Assembly: GCA_963813715.1 (NCBI GenBank)
Contig: CAWFAK010000005.1
Location: 1,120,001 to 1,184,000, forward strand
Length of the DNA: 64,000 bases
Direction: 5' to 3'
Source: an uncultured Planctomycetaceae bacterium
GTDB lineage: Bacteria > Planctomycetota > Planctomycetia > Planctomycetales > Planctomycetaceae
Made by a program: the position numbers and the translations under genes. Below the pieces are notes generated by a model. That model saw only the letters and a list, made by a program, of their open reading frames with translations, was not told the origin of the DNA and ran no database searches. Below, piece by piece: positions 50,399-62,409 of this stretch (positions within the stretch are counted from its first letter, which is position 1; the number at the start of each line of letters is the position of its first letter).

Positions 50399-51518
50399 AT
50401 GGCCCTCACTGAACTCCGGGTCGCCGGTTACCGCTCGTTGAGAGACGTGCGGCTGCCGCTGACACAGCTGAACGTCGTCGTCGGCCCCAACGGCTCGGGG
50501 AAATCGAATCTTTATCGCGCGCTTTGGCTGATTGCGGAGATTTGCGAAGGGGGCTTCGCGCGGGCGATCTGTCGCGAGGGAGGGCTCGTGTCCGCGATGT
50601 GGGCCGGCCCGCGCACGAACACAAAACCCCTGCGGATGGAGCTCGGTTTCGGGACCGAGGACCTTAGCTTCTTGCTCAGCTGCGGCTTTCCACCCCCGCC
50701 GCCGCCTCCGACCGCCTTCGGCTACGACCCCTATATCAAAGAGGAGGCCGTGTGGATCGGCCGAAAGCGGAAACCAACCACGACGCTGCTTGAGCGGTCC
50801 GCGGGGATGACTTCGATCCGCGACGTCGAGGGGCGCCGCGTCGAGTATCCACTGGTGCTTTCCGAGAACGAATCGGTCCTCGCGCAATTCCGCGAGCCCC
50901 ATCGATTCCCTGAACTCTTCGCCTTGCGCGAGGCCGTGCGCGGCTGGCGCTTTTACCATCAGTTTCGCACCGACGAGCAGGCCCCGCTGCGATCACCTCA
51001 AGTCAGCGTGCGGACGCCGGTGCTCAGCCACGACGGCAACGATCTGGCCGCTGCGTTGCAGACTATCACCGAGGTCGGGGATCGCGATCGCCTGTACGAG
51101 GCCATCTCCGCCGGGCTGCCGGGCCGCATGTTGAGGATTCAAGCAACGGGCTCGGCCGGGGCGCACAAGTCGCCGCAGGCCACCGAACTCTCGGTCGCTC
51201 TCGATACGGAGGGTTGCGCGGCCCCTTCTGGCGCGAGAACTCTCCGACGGGACGCTGAAATTTCTCTGCCTGGCGGCCGCCCTGCTGAGCCCGAGACCAC
51301 CGGCTCTGATTGCGCTCAACGAACCCGAGTCGAGCCTCCATCCAGACCTGTTGCCGGCGCTAGCCCGAATGATCGTCGACGCGGCGGAATTCTCGCAAAT
51401 CTGGGTCAGCACGCACTCCAGTCAGCTGGCCGCTTCGATCCGAGAGATCTCCGGCACCGATCCGATCGAACTGGAGCTCTTAGACGGCGAGACTCGGATC
51501 CGGTCGTCGGACGACTGA
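50399..51518 (+). CDS. ABC/SMC-like AAA ATPase (COG4637-like; frameshift near 51225)
   Basis: GYRSLRD, GPNGSGKSN, ELSDGTL, LNEPESSLHP, VSTHS. Confidence 0.88.
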
Positions 51519-51540
51519 GATCCGCGTGTCAGCAACGGAC

Positions 51541-51585
51541 GGTGTGCCAGCGGCCGCAAGGCGGCCTCGAGACACCCTACGGGAT
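51541..51585. repeat. Second copy of the REP half (direct repeat of 50321-50365)
   Basis: 42 of 45 bases identical by manual comparison. Confidence 0.85.
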
Positions 51586-51691
51586 GCAATTCTGCGGCTT
51601 GCGGAGGCACGCCTTGGCAAGGCCTTGCGCGAGAGATTACGGTATCCATTGGCCTTTCCCGTCTGTCCCGCGCAGAGAATCACGAGCGCTC

Positions 51692-53543
51692 ATGCTCCCG
51701 CCAAGTTCCGAGCTCGGAACCGGATCGAACTCCCGTCTTGCGCGATTCGGCATCTGGATCGTGGTCGGGCTCTACCTCGTCGCGGTGCTGGCGGTCAATC
51801 CGTTCCGCGAATGCCCCGTGCGGGACGACTGGGCCTACGCCTGGTCGGCCTGGCGGCTGTTGGCGACGGGCCACTATCTGGCGCACGACTGGGCGTCGGC
51901 CAATACGCCCTTTCAGGCGGCCTGGGGGGCCGCGTTCTGCCTGCTGTTCGGCAATTCGTTCATCGCGCTGCGCTGCTCGACGATCGTGCTGGCCGTGCTG
52001 GGGCTATTCGGCCTTTCGCGCTCTGGCACGCGAGCACGGCTTGAGCCGCGGCGCGGCCGATCTGCTGAGCGCTGTGCGTCGCGTCGTGCTCGATCTTCTT
52101 CAAGCTGAGCCTCAGTTACATGAGCGACGTCCCCTTCGCGGCGCTCGTGACCATCGCCGTTTTGTTCTACACGCGGGCCGTCCGCGGCATGCGCTGGACC
52201 GACTGGATCGCCGGCTCACTGGCGGCGGCGGCGACCGTCGGCACGCGACAATTCGGCGTGGTGCTCGTCGCGGCGGTCGGGCTGGTCTGGCTCTTCGATC
52301 GCCGCCGTTGGACGCAATGGAAAGAGTATGCGGTCGGCATTTCGTTGCCGGTGTTGGCCGCGGCCTGGCAAGTCAACCAGGGCTGGAACCATCCGAACTG
52401 GGCGGCCGGTTTTCAGGTCTACCGGGCGCGAAACTATTTCGCGTCGGGCGCGTTTTTCAAACAGTTGCCCTGGCGTCCCGGAGCTATCGTCGAATATCTC
52501 GCCTGGTTTCTGGTGCCGCTCGTCATTCTGGCGGCACTCGGTGTCGTGCGCGAAATTCGCAAAGACCGCAGTGACGCGCCCGGCGCCTCGCCGCCAAGTC
52601 GACGGCCGCTGGCGACGCTCGCTTTGTGGATCGTCGTCTTTTCCCTGAACGTCGTGTACGGCTGGAAGGTTTTGGGCTACGCGTACCACACGCCCAACTT
52701 TCAGGGCTCGCACGCGCTCATGCCCTTTCTGCCCGATTGCTACGACATCCTCGAGGTGTTGGGCGAGCCCGTCCGCTGGGCGGCGACGCTCTTTGTGATC
52801 GTCGGAGCCGCGCTGTTTGCCCGATTGATCGTGGCCCGCGTCGCGCGGCTGGGGCACCGGTGACGCGCATCAACTGGCTTACTGCGTGCTCGACTTCACG
52901 GCCCTCTTCCTGGCGGCGATCAGCCTGGTCTTCAATCAGTTCACCGACAATTATCTGGTCCCGCTTGTGCCGTACGCGGCCATCGCCGTCGGCCAGCCGC
53001 TGGCGGAACTGCTGTGGGCGCGGCGGCGGGCGGTCGTCGCCTGTTGCCTGCTGCTGTTTGTCGGCGCGGCGATTTGGACGCGCGAAGATCTGGCCAAGGA
53101 CGAGGCGATGTGGAGCCTGTCCGCTCGGTTGCACGACCAGGGCATTCCGCCGCAACAGATCTTCTCGGACTGGAAGTGGTTCTTCTTTTGGAACTTCGAG
53201 GACGCGGCCGAGCAGGGCCTGTTTCATCCCGACACCTCTTATGCGTACTTCTTCGACGAGTGGATGGCCCCCGACCGCCAGTTCGCCGAGTATCGCGTCG
53301 TGCATGAGTTGACGCCGCCGCCCGGCGAACGTTGGGAAGTGGTCGACACGGCACACTATTTCAGCGTCTATGCCCGCGGCCAGGAAACGTTTTACGCCGT
53401 GCGACGAACGCGCGACGAACCGGCCGTGCCTTCCCGCGCCGCATCGTCTGCTCTGCCCGCCGCCTCCGGCAACACGGCCGTGCCGAAAGCCCCGCCTGCC
53501 GCGCCGAAAGGCGCCACGTCGAAAGGCGGAGCGAAGCCATGCA
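51692..53543 (+). CDS. GT-C (GT39/ArnT-like) membrane glycosyltransferase, copy 1 (frameshifts)
   Basis: NPFRECPVRDDWAY, MSDVPF, TRQFG, many TM helices. Confidence 0.8.
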
Positions 53544-55321
53544 GCGCACCTGCGACTTCGCCCAGCGTTGTTGCTCGCGCGCCATCCGGCCTCAGCGGCT
53601 GGCCCGGCCTGTGCCTGGTGATCGGCCTGTATCTGGCGGCGGTCGCGGCCGTGAATCCGCTCCGCGAGTGCCCCGTGCTCGACGACTGGGCCTACGCGTC
53701 GACCGTGCGGCACCTGCTGCAGACGGGCACATACAAGCTCGACGATTGGGTGGCGCCCAACATGCCGTTTCAAGCGTTGTGGGGCGCGGCGTTCTGCCTG
53801 GTGCTGGGCGATTCGTACATCGCGCTGCGGCTGTCGACCGTCGCGCTCACCGTGATCGGGCTGATCGCCTTTCGAGCGCTGGCTCGCGAGCACGGCCTGA
53901 ATGGACGGGCGGCCAATTTGGCCACCTTTTGTCTCGCCTCGTCGTCGTTGTTCTTCCGCATGAGCCTGACGTTTCAGACGGACGTTCCCTTCCTGGTCAC
54001 GCTGATCGTGGCCCTCTGGCTCTACACCCGCGCCCTCCGCGTGATGACAGTGCCCGCGTGGGCGGCGGCCGCGGTGGCGGGTTCGGCCAGCATTCTGACG
54101 CGACAGTTCGGCGCCGCTTTGGTCGCCGCGCTCGGCGTGTTGTGGATGTTCGATCGTGGGCGATTCGCTCGCTTCAAGTACTACGCGCTCGGCATCTCGC
54201 TGCCGGTCCTCGCCGTTGTGTGGCAGTTGTATCGCGGTCTGTTCTATTCCAACTGGGCGGCCGAGTCGGTCTTGTTTCGCCAAAGGCTCTTTTTCTCGCG
54301 AGGGCATTTTCTCCGCGTGCTTCCCTGGCGGCCGCTCGTGCTCGTCGAATACCAGGCACTTTGGCTCGTGCCGTTGGTGCTGTTGGCCGCCTGGGCGACC
54401 GCTCGCATGCTTTTCAACCGGAACGCAAAAGATTCGCCGGCGGAGGGCCCGCTGTCGCGAAGCGCGTCACTGGCCTGGCTGGGCGGCTTCTTGCTGTTGT
54501 TCACGGCGGGCGTGGTCTACGGCTGGAAGACGATCGGCTACGGCTACAACTCGTCCGACTTTCATGGCAACACGGCGCTGATGCCGTTCCTGCGACACAC
54601 GTACGATCTGTTGCTCGTGCTGGGTGAGCCGGTGCGCTGGGCGGTGACGATCTTCGTCGTGGTCGGCGCGGCGCTCATCGCTCGCGTCTTCGTCGAGCGT
54701 TACGCCAGCCTGTTGACCGCGGCGCCGGGAGCCGTCCCTCCGCCGACGCCCCGTGAATTGCTACTCGACTTGACGTCGCTCTTTCTGCTCGGCGGCAACC
54801 TGGTTTTCTTTCAGCAGTGGGATTCCTATCAGCTGCCGTTTCTGCCGCTGGCGGCCATCGTGCTCGCGAAGCGATACGAAAGACTGTTGCTCGCGCGGAG
54901 TTGGGCCGTGGCCGGCTGTTGCCTGGCGATGCTGGCGGGCTCGGCGATTTGGACGCGCGAGGATCTGGCGAAGGGCGACGTGCAATGGATTCTGGCTGAG
55001 CGACTGCGCCAAGAGGGGATTGCGCCACAGAACATCGCCTCGAGCTGGGAGTGGTTTGCCTACTGGAACTTTCCCGAGTTCGTGCGGCAGGAAGGCAAAC
55101 GGGCCAGCACGGAGATCCCCAAGTTCCTTGGCGAAGACGGCTGGCAGGGGCGCAATCGCATTGCCGCCGAATACTGGATCGTCCACGAGCCGCGGCCGCC
55201 GGCAGGTTCACCGGAAACCTGGACCATCGTTGGCGAGGCCGACTACTTCAGTGTCTACGCTCGTCGCCGCGAACGGTTTTACGCCGTACGACGCTCGCCG
55301 GCACCTGAGCAACGCTTTTGA
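53539..55321 (+). CDS. GT-C (GT39/ArnT-like) membrane glycosyltransferase, copy 2 (paralogue)
   Basis: NPLRECPVLDDWAY, QTDVPF, TRQFG; colinear with copy 1 to YFSVYAR..FYAVRR. Confidence 0.8.
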
Positions 55322-55346
55322 GTTCGCCCAAGCGCGAAAGCGCATC

Positions 55347-55362
55347 CTTTGTATTGCAAAGT
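55347..55362. promoter_or_regulatory. Palindromic operator 1 (CTTTG-N5-CAAAG)
   Basis: ctttgtattgcaaagt upstream of the membrane protein/regulator pair; near-identical to 56458-56476. Confidence 0.65.
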
Positions 55363-55426
55363 CTTCGGCCTGACGGTATCCTGACACCAGTTCGCCGTGA
55401 ACACGTTGATTGCCGGGGAATCTCGC

Positions 55427-56038
55427 ATGGAACTTCAGGAAGCCTTGGCTCAGATCGCCGAGATCCGCGACCACCTTGCCCGCACCGAGACGTTCGAGGG
55501 TTATCGCTCCGCCACGGTGGCGGCGTCCGGGCTGATGGCGATTGCCGCCGCCGGCGTGCAGGCGGCCTTCGTTCCCGATCCTCTGGGCCGGCTCGATGCG
55601 TACCTGGGGCTGTGGGTGGGCGTGGCGGTGGTCAGCATTGTGCCGGTGGGCATCGAGATGCTGATCCGCTGCCGCCGAGCGAACTCCGAGACGGCCGCGC
55701 GACTGACGCGGATGGCCGTCGAGCAGTTCTTGCCCTGCCTGGTCGTGGGGGCGCTCATCACGGTGGCGATTGCCGTCGTCGCTCCCGAAACGGCCTGGAT
55801 GCTGCCCGGACTCTGGGCGCTGGTGTTCGGGCTCGGGGTTTTTGCGTCGGCCCGGCTCTTTCCGCGGCCCGTCGTGTGGGTGGCCGCCTACTACCTCCTG
55901 GCTGGGACGGCGTGCCTCGCCAGCGGCAAGCGGTTCGAGCCACTCTCGCCTTGGATGATGGCCGCGACCTTCGGCGTGGGACAGTTGCTGGCGGCGGCGA
56001 TTGTCTACCGCTGCGTGGAGCGCAAGCATGTCTCGTGA
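55427..56038 (+). CDS. Multi-pass membrane protein (regulator-associated)
   Basis: MELQEALAQIAEIR then about six TM helices; overlaps the regulator start. Confidence 0.8.
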   Translation: MELQEALAQIAEIRDHLARTETFEGYRSATVAASGLMAIAAAGVQAAFVPDPLGRLDAYLGLWVGVAVVSIVPVGIEMLIRCRRANSETAARLTRMAVEQFLPCLVVGALITVAIAVVAPETAWMLPGLWALVFGLGVFASARLFPRPVVWVAAYYLLAGTACLASGKRFEPLSPWMMAATFGVGQLLAAAIVYRCVERKHVS

Positions 56039-56429
56039 TCGCAAGCCGGCGCGGCGCGACTCGGGGCGTTTTGCCTACGAGGGGCTCGAGCGGGCCATCC
56101 ACGAAAAGGCCCGCCTGGGCATCCTCACGTCGTTGATGACGCGCCGCGAGGGGCTGCTCTTCACCGAATTGAAAGCACTCTGCTCGCTGACCGACGGCAA
56201 TCTCAACCGCCATCTCAAGGTGCTGCAGGAAGCCGGGCTGGTCGACGTCTGGAAGGGCTCGCAAAAAGGGAAGCCCCAAACGCTCTGCCGGCTGACCACC
56301 GACGGCCGCCGCCGTTTCCTCGAGTATGTCGCCGTGCTGGAACAGGTTATTTCCGACGCCGCGGCCGCTCGGACGGCCACCTCGAAGTCGACCGCCCGCG
56401 ATCTCCTGGGAGGCTGGTCGCCGGCCTGA
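56028..56429 (+). CDS. Winged-helix transcriptional regulator (HTH_34-like)
   Basis: IHEKARLGILTSL, FTELK, LTDGNLNRHLKVLQEAG, LTTDGRRRF. Confidence 0.9.
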   Translation: MSRDRKPARRDSGRFAYEGLERAIHEKARLGILTSLMTRREGLLFTELKALCSLTDGNLNRHLKVLQEAGLVDVWKGSQKGKPQTLCRLTTDGRRRFLEYVAVLEQVISDAAAARTATSKSTARDLLGGWSPA

Positions 56430-56457
56430 GAATCGCCGTCAAATTTTTTTGGCTCAT

Positions 56458-56476
56458 AACTTTGTAATGCAAAGTT
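56458..56476. promoter_or_regulatory. Palindromic operator 2 (AACTTTG-N5-CAAAGTT)
   Basis: aactttgtaatgcaaagtt, 50 bp upstream of the ispH start. Confidence 0.7.
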
Positions 56477-56525
56477 GTTGAGTAAGGCTTGTGAATCGGA
56501 CTGTGGCGGACGAAGGAGGTCACCG

Positions 56526-58178
56526 ATGAAAGTCTTGCGTGCCGATGCGATGGGAATTTGCTTTGGCGTTCGCGACGCCCTGGCGATGGCCGCTGCCCTG
56601 CCCGATCCGGTCAACACCACGATTCACGGCGAGCTGGTGCACAACGAGACCGTGCTCGTCCAGTTGCGCACGCGCGGCTTTCGCATGACGGCCGAGACCG
56701 AACGCGACTCGCTGCCGCCCACCCAGGACGTACTGATCACGGCTCACGGCATCAGCGACCGCGAGCGACGGCGACTTGAGGGAGCAGGCAAACGGCTGAT
56801 CGACACGACCTGCCCGCTCGTCGAACGCGTGCACCGCGCGGCCCAGGCTCTGCAAGCCGACGGATACCACGTCCTCGTCCTCGGGCGGCGAGCGCATGCC
56901 GAGGTCCGCGGCATCGTCGAAGACCTGACCGCGTACAACGTGCTGGAGAGCCTGGAGGATGTTGTCGACTTCGGACAGGCGAAGCTCGGCCTCGTTTGTC
57001 AGACGACCACTCCGCCCGATCTGGCGAAGCAGATCCTCGCCGCCGTCCGTGCTCGCAATCCGGCTTCCCAGGTCCGCTTTGCCGACACGATTTGCCAGCC
57101 GACGCGCGAACGGCAGCAAGCGCTCGAGCGGCTGCTTTATAAGGTCGACGCGATGGTCGTCGTCGGCGGCAAGAACTCGAATAACACGCGACAGCTCGTC
57201 GAGCGCTGCCGGGCCGCGAACGTTCCGGTCTGGCACGTGCAGGACGCGGGCGGGCTTGCCGAGTGCCGTTTCGACGGCCACCAGGTCATCGGGCTGACGG
57301 CCGGCACGTCGACGCCGGACGAAACCATCGATGCGGTCTACGTCGCGCTGTGCCGGTTGCCGTCCGGGGTGCCGAACACGTCGCGACAGTGGGTGCGGCA
57401 TTTCCACGCGAATGCCGACACGCCGGCCGACATTCCCTGGGACGATCCGCGGCGACTCTCGGCCGTCGAGCGGAGGGCCGTGCTCCGCTCGATTCAGATT
57501 TTCCAGCTCGGCGAGAGCGGGGGCGGCAGTCGGCTGTTGCGGGCGGCCGAGACCTATTGCCGGCAGACCGGCGATCGCCACTATCTCAAGGCGCTACGGC
57601 TCTTCATTCGCGAAGAGCAGCACCATGCCGAATTGCTCGCGCGCTTCTTGAGGCGGGAGGAGACCGAGCTTATCGGCCGGCAGTGGACCAACGGCATCTT
57701 TCGCCGCTGCCGCAATCTGGTCGGGCTGGAGTTGATGCTGGCGGTGCTGTTGGCCGCCGAGCTGATGGCCCGCGTGTATTACGCCGCGCTCAGCCGGGCG
57801 ACGGACGATCCCGTGCTGCGAGCGATCTGTGGGCGGATCCTTCGCGACGAGCGCTGGCACGTGCGGTTCCAGTGTGATCGCCTGGCACACATGCGGGGCG
57901 AGCGCCGGCGATCTCTAGGCCTGTTGACTGGCGCGGCCGAGCGGATCGGCTTTAGGGTCGTGTGCGTCGCGGTCTGGATGAATCACGCCCGCGTGTTTCG
58001 AGCGACGGGGATCGGCTTTGGAGCGTTCTGGCGGCGGACGGGACGCGAGCTTGATCTGGCCCGCCGGCTCATCGGTGCGACGACGCGGCAAGCGGCGCGA
58101 GTTAGTTCGATCTTGCCGGCGGCTGCGACACGCGGTGAATCGATCGTCGCAGGAAGCCCAGCACTGTCCAGCCGGTGA
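56526..58178 (+). CDS. ispH: IspH (HMBPP reductase) fused to a C-terminal ferritin-like di-iron domain
   Basis: AGGAGG RBS; GICFGV, LVHN, TAHG, DTTCPLV, HAEV, QTT, DTIC, NSNN, AGTST; then in frame QLGE, EEQHH, AE, DERWH. Confidence 0.88.
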   Translation: MKVLRADAMGICFGVRDALAMAAALPDPVNTTIHGELVHNETVLVQLRTRGFRMTAETERDSLPPTQDVLITAHGISDRERRRLEGAGKRLIDTTCPLVERVHRAAQALQADGYHVLVLGRRAHAEVRGIVEDLTAYNVLESLEDVVDFGQAKLGLVCQTTTPPDLAKQILAAVRARNPASQVRFADTICQPTRERQQALERLLYKVDAMVVVGGKNSNNTRQLVERCRAANVPVWHVQDAGGLAECRFDGHQVIGLTAGTSTPDETIDAVYVALCRLPSGVPNTSRQWVRHFHANADTPADIPWDDPRRLSAVERRAVLRSIQIFQLGESGGGSRLLRAAETYCRQTGDRHYLKALRLFIREEQHHAELLARFLRREETELIGRQWTNGIFRRCRNLVGLELMLAVLLAAELMARVYYAALSRATDDPVLRAICGRILRDERWHVRFQCDRLAHMRGERRRSLGLLTGAAERIGFRVVCVAVWMNHARVFRATGIGFGAFWRRTGRELDLARRLIGATTRQAARVSSILPAAATRGESIVAGSPALSSR

Positions 58179-58335
58179 TCATGCCGACTCCGTAGGTGGC
58201 CCCGATCAACACGGCCACGGTGGTGGTCACCGTCCGATCGAGATACTTGAGCGTCACCTCGTCGCGGTTTTGCAGCACGAACAGTCCGACGGCCCCCAAC
58301 AGCACCACCAAGATGAATCCGTAGATCATCTTCAT
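58102..58335 (-). CDS. LapA/DUF1049-like small membrane protein
   Basis: FVLQNRDEVTLKYL between two TM helices; AGGAG RBS. Confidence 0.7.
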   Translation of the reverse strand: MKMIYGFILVVLLGAVGLFVLQNRDEVTLKYLDRTVTTTVAVLIGATYGVGMITGWTVLGFLRRSIHRVSQPPARSN

Positions 58336-58362
58336 CGTGTCAGTCTCCTGGTCGCTTGCGCG

Positions 58363-58569
58363 TCACAAGTTCCACGAGAGCAAAAACAGGACCGCGAACA
58401 GCGCCGCCATCGAGACCAGAATCGTGACGAACAATCGGGCCGATCGCCGCAGGATCTGCGGCGGATACTCGAACCGGGTGGCGCTGTAGACCAGGCTGAC
58501 CGTCAGCGCCAGCGGCAGCAGGTACCAGCTGGCGTGGGTTTTGTCGGCCAGGATCAAAAACGACTGCAT
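58363..58569 (-). CDS. Small two-TM hypothetical protein
   Basis: WYLLPLALTVSLVYSATRFE, co-oriented with its neighbours. Confidence 0.7.
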   Translation of the reverse strand: MQSFLILADKTHASWYLLPLALTVSLVYSATRFEYPPQILRRSARLFVTILVSMAALFAVLFLLSWNL

Positions 58570-61359: not shown

Positions 61360-62409
61360 ATGATGGCTCGCGCAACGCCACTCGCCGCGATTTTTTTGGG
61401 CTTGTGCCTGTCGCCGCACGCCCAGGCCGACGCAGCAGCCCCGGCTCCTCCCGTGCCCCGGGAGCAAGTCCAGCGGGCGGTCGACCGCTCCATCGGCTAC
61501 CTGCAAACCGAAAGTGGCAACTGGCTGAACACGCGCCGCTGTGCGGCCTGTCATCATGCCGGCATGCCCCTCTGGGCGCTCAATGAAGCCGACAAGCTGG
61601 GCTACGCCATCGACAAGAAGTTCATGGCCGACAAGATCGAAGCGACACTCGGAAGCCCGGACAAGCTGATCGCGGTCAAGCTTGTGCCCGGCCCGAAAGA
61701 TCCTCCGGACACGCGACCGCTTGCCCGAGGCCTCAACATGGGGCTTCCGTTCCTGGCGGTCGCCGGACGTTCGTTCCCGACTTTAAGCGAGGGCCAGAAA
61801 CAGAGCCTGAGCTTTATTACCGAGGAGATCCTCAAGAAGCAGATGAAAGACGGCTCGTGGGAGTTCTTTCTCAGCCGGCCGCCGATCAACGAGACGCAGC
61901 TCACCGACGTCGGCTGGATCCTGATGGCGCTGCAGGCCGATCCGGCCAGCGTCACGTCTCAGCCGCAGCGTGTCGCACTGCAAAAAGGGGTCGCCTGGCT
62001 CGCCGACACCAAGCAGCCCGACACGTACCAGAGCAAGGTTTTGAAACTGTTGCTGGCGATCCGCGCCGGCAAAGCCACGAGCGATCTCCAGCCGCAGATC
62101 AACGAATTGCTCGCCGCACAACAGCCTGACGGTGGCTGGCGACAACTCCCCGAAATGAAGAGCGACGCCTTCGCGACCGGGCAGACGCTGTACGTGTTGT
62201 CGCTGGCGGGTTATACGGCCGAGCGCCCGCAAATGAAGCGTGCCATCGCCTTTCTCGTGACGACGCAAAAGCCGGACGGCAGCTGGCCGATGACGTCGCA
62301 CGCCTCTCCAGACGGGAAGCCCGGCCACGCCAAGCTGCTGACACCCATCACGTGCGGGGCAACTTCCTGGGTGACGCTCGGCTTGTCGCGAGCCGTGCCG
62401 AAACGCTAA
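61360..62409 (+). CDS. Secreted prenyltransferase/squalene-cyclase-repeat protein
   Basis: Signal peptide; QMKDGSW, QQPDGGW, QKPDGSW repeats; CAACH. Confidence 0.8.
   Translation: MMARATPLAAIFLGLCLSPHAQADAAAPAPPVPREQVQRAVDRSIGYLQTESGNWLNTRRCAACHHAGMPLWALNEADKLGYAIDKKFMADKIEATLGSPDKLIAVKLVPGPKDPPDTRPLARGLNMGLPFLAVAGRSFPTLSEGQKQSLSFITEEILKKQMKDGSWEFFLSRPPINETQLTDVGWILMALQADPASVTSQPQRVALQKGVAWLADTKQPDTYQSKVLKLLLAIRAGKATSDLQPQINELLAAQQPDGGWRQLPEMKSDAFATGQTLYVLSLAGYTAERPQMKRAIAFLVTTQKPDGSWPMTSHASPDGKPGHAKLLTPITCGATSWVTLGLSRAVPKR

Follow-up and report, generated by a model that had tools for sequence, protein, structure and literature searches.

IspH catalyses an essential, oxygen-labile step of the methylerythritol phosphate (MEP) pathway and is a drug target. 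A conserved fusion of this enzyme to a metal centre of an O2-reactive type is unexpected. The gene concerned lies at positions 56526-58178 (+) of a 64,000-nucleotide (nt) stretch of DNA from an uncultured soil bacterium of the Planctomycetaceae (contig CAWFAK010000005.1 of assembly GCA_963813715.1, positions 1,120,001 to 1,184,000), which is called the window below. An earlier note, made from the sequence alone, had described an IspH that continues in frame into a di-iron-type domain. This is confirmed: the two parts form one open reading frame (ORF) of 550 residues without a stop. The protein is a genuine and conserved two-domain protein, and its gene is the cargo of a conserved, apparently regulated unit. 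The C-terminal domain is called Fer here.

The fusion protein and its two domains

The fusion ORF (56526-58178 (+)) starts with an ATG at 56526, ends with a TGA at 58176-58178 and runs in a single frame through 550 codons and the stop. An AGGAGG motif resembling a ribosome-binding site, as read from the sequence, is located 6 nt before the ATG (56514-56519 (+)). The IspH/LytB domain, delimited by profile matches and by alignments to solved chains, comprises residues 1-275 (56526-57350 (+)). The Fer domain has a predicted ferritin fold with a di-metal site and comprises residues 280 to about 525 (57363-58100 (+)). The junction between them is short and, in the model, ordered (residues ~276-287; 57351-57386 (+)). 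It is spanned, without insertions or deletions, by two DNA contigs of 14.8 kb and 3.5 kb that come from two other studies of soil. It is also crossed by two metatranscriptome-library contigs (57150-57620 and 57279-57515); being contigs, these RNA-library data speak for presence in the library only and not for transcription, strand or level.

The fusion is not confined to the window. In a search with residues 280-550 as the query, limited to lengths of 302-963 residues, LytB was found in all 31 proteins retrieved. These 31 fused protein clusters, in which the LytB domain was precomputed, have 363-565 residues and 57-98% identity. The same fused gene is present in four metagenome-assembled genomes (MAGs) of Planctomycetaceae. 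Metagenomes were scanned with the Fer alignment, which gave 527 confirmed loci, and the 80 that are most similar to the query were kept; these loci carry no taxonomic label, many are short contigs and related ones are not independent. Six of the 80 have the fused form, and among the metagenome loci there is a second, distant fused clade (L040, L052 and L060).

The full-length AlphaFold model, calculated with a 31-row alignment, has a mean predicted local distance difference test score (pLDDT) of 84.6 and a predicted template-modelling score (pTM) of 0.71. In this model the junction separates the last helix of IspH (residues 265-276) from the first helix of the di-metal domain (residues 286-298), and the pLDDT is 90-92 at residues 270-290. 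The only weak regions are the loop 387-395 and the last ~27 residues. The latter include the C-terminal tail (residues ~526-550; 58101-58175 (+)), which has a pLDDT of 26-41 and is poorly conserved. A predicted complex of the IspH domain with the Fer domain gave a score of 0.00 and a mark of 0.32 and was used neither for nor against any reading. The last ~77 nt of the fusion ORF are overlapped by a convergent ORF for a 77-residue, LapA-domain-like membrane protein (58102-58335 (-)), which matches PF06305 slightly below the cut-off (27.1 bits against 28). The part of the tail that it overlaps is poorly conserved save for a terminal SSR.

The IspH half had been described as complete, with its three cluster cysteines and its catalytic motifs, and profiles, alignments and residue invariance all bear this out. 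Residues 1-275 match PF02401 (LytB) with 236.4 bits (cut-off 24.5) and TIGR00216 (ispH_lytB) with 228.1 bits (cut-off 187.85). The cysteines C12, C96 and C190 (codons 56559-56561, 56811-56813 and 57093-57095 (+)) align with the cluster cysteines of the solved IspH chains of Aquifex aeolicus (3dnf) and Escherichia coli and are invariant in all 28 sequences of an IspH alignment that includes canonical copies. H39, H74, H124/E126, T160-T162, S218/N219/N220 and S262 correspond to motifs that are conserved in the solved chains, as do the QTTT, NSNN and TSTP motifs that are found in the fused IspH. H39, H74, H124, E126, T161, S218, N220 and S262 are likewise invariant in the 28 sequences. In the IspH literature the conserved residues are assigned to substrate binding and to the proton relay. 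By all sequence-level criteria the fused half is an intact IspH of the 4-hydroxy-3-methylbut-2-enyl diphosphate (HMBPP) reductase type.

It is not the only IspH of the organism. The genome (7.49 Mb in 18 contigs, 82.6% complete) was searched for a second canonical copy and has two, each of about 315 residues, with LytB scores of 312.9 and 311.8 bits; the fused gene is the third match of the genome scan, with 238.7 bits. The fused gene is thus a third, dedicated paralogue, and the canonical copies are only 31% and 30% identical to its IspH domain. When 54 IspH domains were placed in a quick maximum-likelihood tree, the IspHs linked to the cassette described below formed one clade, for which the Shimodaira-Hasegawa-like approximate likelihood-ratio test (SH-aLRT) gives a support of 98; the trees of Fer and of IspH are both quick IQ-TREE searches with SH-aLRT support only. 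The clade has 31 rows, 28 of them linked to a cassette and three with flanks that lack it. Neither the genome's own canonical pair nor the housekeeping IspHs of other Planctomycetota fall within the clade. Several other planctomycetal genomes (G099, G108, G119, G083 and G044) have two or three IspH homologues each, one of which is a cassette-type copy that is 53-60% identical to the window IspH, and the housekeeping copies are about 30% identical to it.

The Fer half fits the pattern E, ExxH, E, ExxH that had been noticed behind IspH, the residues being E330, E364-x2-H367, E412 and E442-x2-H445. These residues and E363 are invariant in 27 fused orthologues. An alignment of 58 sequences, 57 of them free-standing homologues, shows the same residues to be invariant, and with them H487, R396, S322 and Q327. 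The ligand codons are at 57513-57515 (E330), 57612-57617 (E363/E364), 57624-57626 (H367), 57759-57761 (E412), 57849-57851 (E442), 57858-57860 (H445) and 57984-57986 (H487), all (+). The extra invariant R396, H487, S322 and Q327 suggest a specific ligand site. An AlphaFold2 model of Fer alone, based on the 58-row alignment, is all-helical (pLDDT 90.7, pTM 0.85), and the ligands all sit in predicted helices. As judged from the alignments, both IspH and Fer are shown to be under purifying conservation.

The fold of Fer was compared by VIA-align with 48,161 Protein Data Bank (PDB) representatives. The best matches are the class Ib ribonucleotide reductase protein R2F-2 (1uzr; Z 19.4, 228 residues, root-mean-square deviation 3.0) and the R2-like ligand-binding oxidase R2lox (4hr0; Z 19.4), the two matches spanning 228-234 residues. 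They are followed by human R2 (Z 19.3), a protein like aldehyde-deformylating oxygenase (ADO; 5ux2, Z 18.9), bacterial multicomponent monooxygenase subunits (Z ~18) and acyl-ACP desaturases (Z ~14). AurF and CmlI (Z 12-13) and the small bundles of ferritin, bacterioferritin, Dps and symerythrin/rubrerythrin-like proteins (Z 11-13) score lower. This ranking therefore places Fer among the large R2-type ferritin-like di-metal carboxylate proteins, most of which are oxidases and oxygenases that activate O2 or proteins that generate radicals. The assignment rests on VIA-align, because Foldseek gave no PDB match at E ≤ 0.001; its top match was again R2lox (E 3e-3, TM 0.62, probability 1.00).

At the sequence level, Fer falls below the cut-off of every curated Pfam and NCBIfam family tested: Rubrerythrin PF02915 (20.4 bits against 22.8), AurF PF11583 (15.3 against 29.6), FA_desaturase_2 PF03405 (12.3 against 22.7), R2lox NF006202 (13.4 against 315) and EncB NF058679 (18.8 against 90). 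For this reason Fer is not filed as an R2, R2lox, ADO, desaturase, AurF or rubrerythrin. A Fer profile run against PDB sequences found only generic matches (de-novo di-iron bundles, R2lox, EncB, DesA2 and bacterioferritin). Neighbouring ESM-Atlas clusters, in which 20-81% of the members carry PF03405 and whose proteins are named 'ferritin-like' or 'hypothetical' (Verrucomicrobiota, Actinomycetota, Myxococcota and Pseudomonadota), were taken as leads only. The radical tyrosine of R2 sits four residues after the first ligand histidine; position 371 of the fusion protein, at +4 from H367, is, as counted along the sequence alignments, an invariant Leu. Fer thus has the sequence and the modelled fold of the ferritin-like di-iron superfamily, with a predicted di-metal site.

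The cassette and its palindromic box

The fusion gene is shown to be the cargo of a conserved unit, which consists of a membrane protein of ~205 residues, an HTH_34 regulator, a palindrome and the cargo itself. The membrane-protein gene (55397-56038 (+)) is the first of the cassette. Its product of 213 residues matched no Pfam or NCBIfam family, and homologues with 40-55% identity hold the same position in other loci. The second gene (56001-56429 (+)) overlaps the first by 38 nt and encodes an ArsR-like winged-helix regulator of the HTH_34 family (PF13601, 71.7 bits, cut-off 27), with further weak matches to ArsR/SmtB, SdpR and SufR that are all under cut-off. Its position, too, is kept in related loci.

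What follows this pair varies. In other loci the membrane protein and HTH_34 precede fused IspH-Fer, separate IspH and Fer, undecaprenyl-diphosphate synthase (UppS) and Fer, Poly_export and Fer, or Fer alone. The cargo after HTH_34 was examined in 25 of the best membrane-protein loci. A cassette-type IspH without Fer stands right behind HTH_34 in 15, and a flavoprotein of the geranylgeranyl-reductase family is the cargo in 3. A gene for a B12-binding radical S-adenosylmethionine (SAM) enzyme follows HTH_34 directly in 2 and IspH in 1 more, and the remaining loci face unrelated convergent genes. In two related loci (L048 and L056) a Wza-like Poly_export gene lies between HTH_34 and Fer, where IspH or UppS sits elsewhere; its best NCBIfam match, the PEP-CTERM exopolysaccharide export model, is below cut-off. 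Across bacteria the unit is thus shown to carry or control IspH paralogues, UppS, geranylgeranyl-reductase-family flavoproteins, B12-radical-SAM enzymes, polysaccharide exporters and Fer.

The palindrome has the consensus ACTTTG-N5-CAAAGT, and its two copies in the window compare with 0.03 expected by chance. The first, CCTTTGTATTGCAAAGT (55346-55362), has one mismatch and lies upstream of the membrane-protein gene, a position that is conserved in related loci. The second, ACTTTGTAATGCAAAGT (56459-56475), is exact and is a putative operator 51 nt upstream of the fusion ATG; in other loci, too, a box is kept in front of IspH, Fer and UppS genes. The 14.8-kb contig of a related strain lacks 23 nt at 56485, between this box and the start codon of the fusion, and the length of the leader therefore varies while the fusion ORF stays intact.

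In 139 non-redundant loci (811,547 nt) there are 77 boxes with at most one mismatch, 26 of them exact, and 20 shuffles gave 0-3. Sixty-seven of the 77 are situated no more than 250 nt upstream of the start of a cassette gene: 22 before the membrane protein, 23 before IspH, 19 before Fer and 3 before UppS. The box also precedes free-standing Fer without a linked cassette; this is so in 8 of the 43 such loci that have 150 nt or more of upstream sequence, and in loci of three GTDB genomes (L010, L012 and L013). By its placement, the box pattern is the signature of an operator common to an autoregulated regulator operon and its targets.

The organism's own genome has three exact boxes, compared to 0-1 in 20 shuffles. 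One-mismatch boxes are uninformative on this scale because there are 4 sites compared to 4-6 in the shuffles. The two exact boxes outside the window are at C5:597165-597181 and C8:660686-660702 (loci L175 and L176). One of them lies between divergent small ORFs without a family, the other between a DUF4153 membrane-protein gene and a gene for a beta-propeller-like protein of 303 residues, and they may mark further members of the regulon. A sigma-70 promoter scan of 55200-58500 found no site, with a consensus that may not suit planctomycete promoters. The sole terminator-like site in the same interval is inside the fusion ORF, on the other strand.

Beyond the cassette, several genes of the window were recorded. 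Two PMT_2/GT-C-type glycosyltransferase genes lie directly upstream, on the same strand (52120-55321 (+)); such enzymes use polyprenyl-phosphate-linked sugars. In one metagenome clade (L025, L035, L044, L046 and L072) a PMT_2 gene stands two genes upstream of Fer. An ORF of 349 residues, 3 kb downstream on the same strand (61360-62409 (+)), has alpha-alpha-toroid repeats of the squalene-hopene-cyclase/prenyltransferase kind (PF13249, 38.1 bits; PF13243, 36 bits) and is too short for a cyclase. The product of a 569-residue ORF (50399-52108 (+)) begins with an AAA_15/AAA_21 (AbiEii-like/SMC-like) ATPase head; apparently unrelated to the fusion, this protein could be an ATPase of the defence type.

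The Fer family and the role of the fusion

The fused proteins are a small part of a large family. With a threshold of E ≤ 1e-3, a hidden Markov model of Fer finds 1,839 representatives of 50%-identity clusters, and 749 of them also pass E ≤ 1e-30. Most are free-standing, and nearly all have 240-290 residues. Thirteen of the longer representatives were checked against Pfam for extra domains. LytB precedes Fer in P0120, in P0131 and in the truncated P0187. P0148 (509 residues) is a fusion of UppS and Fer (PF01255, 238 bits; TIGR00055, 222.8 bits, cut-off 109.55), and P0245, a second UppS-Fer protein, belongs to the same cluster. In P0126 Fer is followed by DAGK_prokar, the prokaryotic diacylglycerol/undecaprenol-kinase domain of DgkA. 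Fer is joined to UPF0047 in P0106, which its source annotates as a secondary thiamine-phosphate synthase, and P0099 (573 residues) is a tandem double Fer.

The genes that adjoin Fer repeat some of these partners. Neighbours in the 80 metagenome loci were counted from tblastn high-scoring segment pairs of the window proteins, because ORF picking by length and third-position GC content can miss or mis-call genes in foreign loci. IspH is directly upstream of Fer in 11 of the 80 (6 fused in frame, 5 as separate genes). UppS is in that position in 10, as a separate gene with a gap of 35-134 nt; one of these (L070) is an apparent UppS-Fer fusion with an internal frame change and, being ambiguous, was counted as separate. 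HTH_34 alone is upstream in 7. Where 900 nt or more of upstream sequence are available (46 loci), 9 have IspH, 4 UppS and 3 only HTH_34. On the quick Fer tree the fused state requires two changes, one for the Planctomycetaceae clade with L054 and one for the clade of L040, L052 and L060. Since IspH-adjacent loci are also scattered, the linkage of IspH and Fer is recurrent and not a single inherited event.

The reading that we favour, tentatively and with slightly less than even confidence, is that Fer is an O2-dependent oxidase of an isoprenoid or polyprenyl lipid, co-induced with an extra supply of C5 units. Fer is assigned to an isoprenoid-derived lipid because IspH, UppS and DgkA all belong to isoprenoid diphosphate and carrier-lipid metabolism. 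HTH_34 would bind to the box and repress until a signal, received by way of the membrane protein, relieves the repression, a logic that resembles that of ArsR-type repressors paired with small membrane proteins. The IspH half would then add to the supply of isopentenyl and dimethylallyl diphosphate. With a di-iron (or Mn/Fe) centre and O2, the Fer half would hydroxylate or desaturate a lipid derived from isoprenoids, for which a prenyl or polyprenyl (di)phosphate is the most plausible candidate.

A bolder version, which is unlikely to hold in full, would make the unit an unrecognised and widespread regulon for isoprenoid and carrier-lipid homeostasis. The membrane protein would sense the state of an isoprenoid in the membrane, such as the polyprenyl-phosphate pool, and release the repressor. 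Fer would represent a new class of soluble di-iron oxygenases acting on prenyl or polyprenyl (di)phosphates, and the fusion would couple C5 supply to modification.

A number of observations weigh against the oxidation of an isoprenoid lipid by Fer. The idea of an isoprenoid substrate is drawn from gene fusion, adjacency and the common box, and the binding of HTH_34 to that box is itself inferred. IspH, UppS and HTH_34 are all absent upstream of Fer in 52 of the 80 loci. Many of these are short contigs, but the same holds for 30 of the 46 whose upstream sequence reaches 900 nt or more. The neighbours of such unlinked Fer genes are heterogeneous and include QueF, DAO with a Rieske oxygenase, redoxin, Sel1 and MoxR. 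Of 401 Planctomycetota genomes sampled, 7 yielded Fer and 73 the membrane protein, and most cassette IspH paralogues occur without Fer. The two extra exact boxes of the organism's genome have neighbours without an isoprenoid link. The geranylgeranyl-reductase-family cargos match TIGR02032 with 118-136 bits, below the cut-off of 158.8, and the matches of the B12-radical-SAM cargos are generic. Finally, Fer is fused more often to IspH, an Fe-S enzyme, than to UppS, and this would suit a protective role as well.

Such a role was one of two alternatives offered by the earlier note: a self-protecting or self-repairing IspH, or an enzyme for a specialised isoprenoid or lipid. The context favours the second, because Fer also adjoins UppS (10/80) and is fused to UppS and DgkA, neither of which has an Fe-S cluster, and because the common regulon also holds geranylgeranyl-reductase-family genes. 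The first is less favoured and has found no specific support. Under it, the di-iron domain would scavenge O2, H2O2 or NO, or re-metallate the [4Fe-4S] cluster, and the product would be a stress-induced, oxidant-tolerant spare IspH. This seems rather improbable, although several facts would suit it. The fusion partner is an O2-labile Fe-S enzyme, which the organism has as a regulated third paralogue in addition to two housekeeping copies. Fer is fused in 6 of the 11 IspH-linked loci and clearly fused in none of the 10 UppS-linked ones, the known UppS fusions being P0148 and P0245. There are weak sequence matches to rubrerythrin and encapsulated ferritin (e.g. 20.4 bits against a cut-off of 22.8), the HTH_34 regulator weakly resembles metalloregulators and SufR, and a redoxin/AhpC-like gene adjoins Fer in one clade. 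However, the fold of Fer is nearer to the large substrate-oxidising or radical-generating R2, R2lox and ADO proteins (Z ~19) than to the peroxidase and ferroxidase bundles (Z 11-13). The Pfam matches of the fusion protein at E ≤ 1 do not include the hemerythrin (RIC/YtfE-type) family. The invariant R396, H487, S322 and Q327 suggest a specific ligand site, and most cassette IspH paralogues have no Fer.

The di-metal site might also act as a sensor of O2, iron or redox state that gates the attached or co-expressed enzyme without turning over any lipid. The variety of enzymes to which Fer is attached or adjacent (IspH, UppS, DgkA and UPF0047) is often seen with sensor modules. Fer belongs to a tightly regulated unit, the junction is ordered in the full-length model, and the pTM of that model is 0.71. 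Nevertheless, most members of the family are free-standing proteins of ~260 residues, the six-ligand set and the further invariant residues are kept in 58 of 58 sequences, as in enzymes, and no known sensor family was matched in Pfam, NCBIfam or PDB-sequence profiles. A sensor is accordingly judged a poor prospect.

A non-redox di-metal hydrolase is more doubtful still. In such a protein the carboxylate-bridged metal pair would serve as a Lewis acid towards the diphosphate group of a prenyl or polyprenyl diphosphate; a cytoplasmic phosphatase that acts on C55 diphosphate and supplies carrier lipid would be one example. The linked IspH, UppS and DgkA all make or handle prenyl (di)phosphates or lipid phosphates, the invariant Arg and His that are not part of the ligand set might form a phosphate-binding site, and envelope-glycan neighbours (PMT_2, Poly_export and RmlA/D) are frequent. 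Against this, VIA-align found no ferritin-fold phosphatase among the structural matches, the ligand set of Fer is typical of O2-activating and ferroxidase centres, and the idea is pure inference. The last alternative, that a sequencing or assembly error joined two genes, could appeal to the 5 of 11 IspH-linked metagenome loci in which IspH and Fer are separate, but it has practically no chance of being true and is rejected, given the identical in-frame junction in independent contigs of other studies, the four MAGs, the 31 protein clusters, the second distant fused clade and a linker that is ordered in the model and conserved among orthologues.

Novelty and comparison with known systems

IspH fusions as such are known. 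New here are the combination of IspH with a ferritin-like domain, a family of ferritin-like di-iron oxygenases (FDOs) with its first functional context, and an undescribed regulon. The earlier note had not recognised the architecture as described, and a full-text literature search, outside which most subscription journals lay, likewise found no description of it and nothing on the Fer family or HTH_34/PF13601. The IspH paralogues that PMC11192765 mentions are those of plants.

A family of about 1,800 clusters without a Pfam model gains a first functional handle from its repeated fusion and adjacency to IspH, UppS and DgkA and from a common operator. In addition, a compact regulon is exposed, made up of a membrane protein, an ArsR-like regulator and a 17-nt palindrome, through which Planctomycetota and other soil bacteria control spare isoprenoid enzymes. 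If Fer indeed oxidises polyprenyl lipids or conditions IspH for life in air, it would constitute a new enzyme class in bacterial isoprenoid and carrier-lipid biology.

Compared with the solved IspH/LytB proteins of A. aeolicus (3dnf) and E. coli (3ke8/3f7t), the fused half passes both PF02401 and TIGR00216 and keeps all motifs, the best solved relative being 3dnf with 137 bits. The window protein differs from them in its C-terminal di-metal domain of 275 residues, its membership of the cassette clade and the palindromic box upstream. The fusion of IspH to ribosomal protein S1, cited in the earlier note as a known case, does have a model of its own (NF000907). It, too, has an N-terminal IspH in a longer protein, and the window IspH aligns to model positions 1-274; however, the window protein scores 219 bits against a cut-off of 624, and its C-terminal partner is unrelated to S1.

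Fer shares with R2lox (4hr0, 5dcs and 3ee4) and R2 (1uzr and 2uw2) the R2-type ferritin fold over ~230 residues and the E/ExxH/E/ExxH logic. It is only 11-18% identical to them, belongs to no Pfam family and has the extra invariant His487 and Arg396, and its context is isoprenoid and not nucleotide or fatty acid metabolism. The fold is also similar to those of ADO-like proteins (5ux2 and 4rc5; Z 16.6-18.9) and of the soluble acyl-ACP desaturases (PF03405; Z 14). The window protein matches the desaturase family weakly and under cut-off (12.3 bits), and its tandem relative P0099 matches it with 27.0 bits. Unlike those enzymes, Fer has a conserved neighbourhood without fatty-acid or ACP genes.

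The cassette recalls the pairing of SdpR and SdpI, in that a small polytopic membrane protein and an ArsR-like regulator are encoded in one operon with a box in front. However, HTH_34 scores only 16.7 bits against the SdpR model (cut-off 100) and the membrane protein has no match to the SdpI family, so the likeness in mechanism is an analogy. A further parallel, drawn from its description, is BioE, a ferritin-like di-iron oxygenase whose function was assigned recently and which has a repressor of its own, BioL (PMC12704756). BioE differs from Fer in belonging to a biotin operon with a MocR/GntR-type regulator (PMC12704756). Like Fer, BioE was formerly a hypothetical FDO beside a dedicated regulator, and, as described there, it acts on a lipid chain (PMC12704756).

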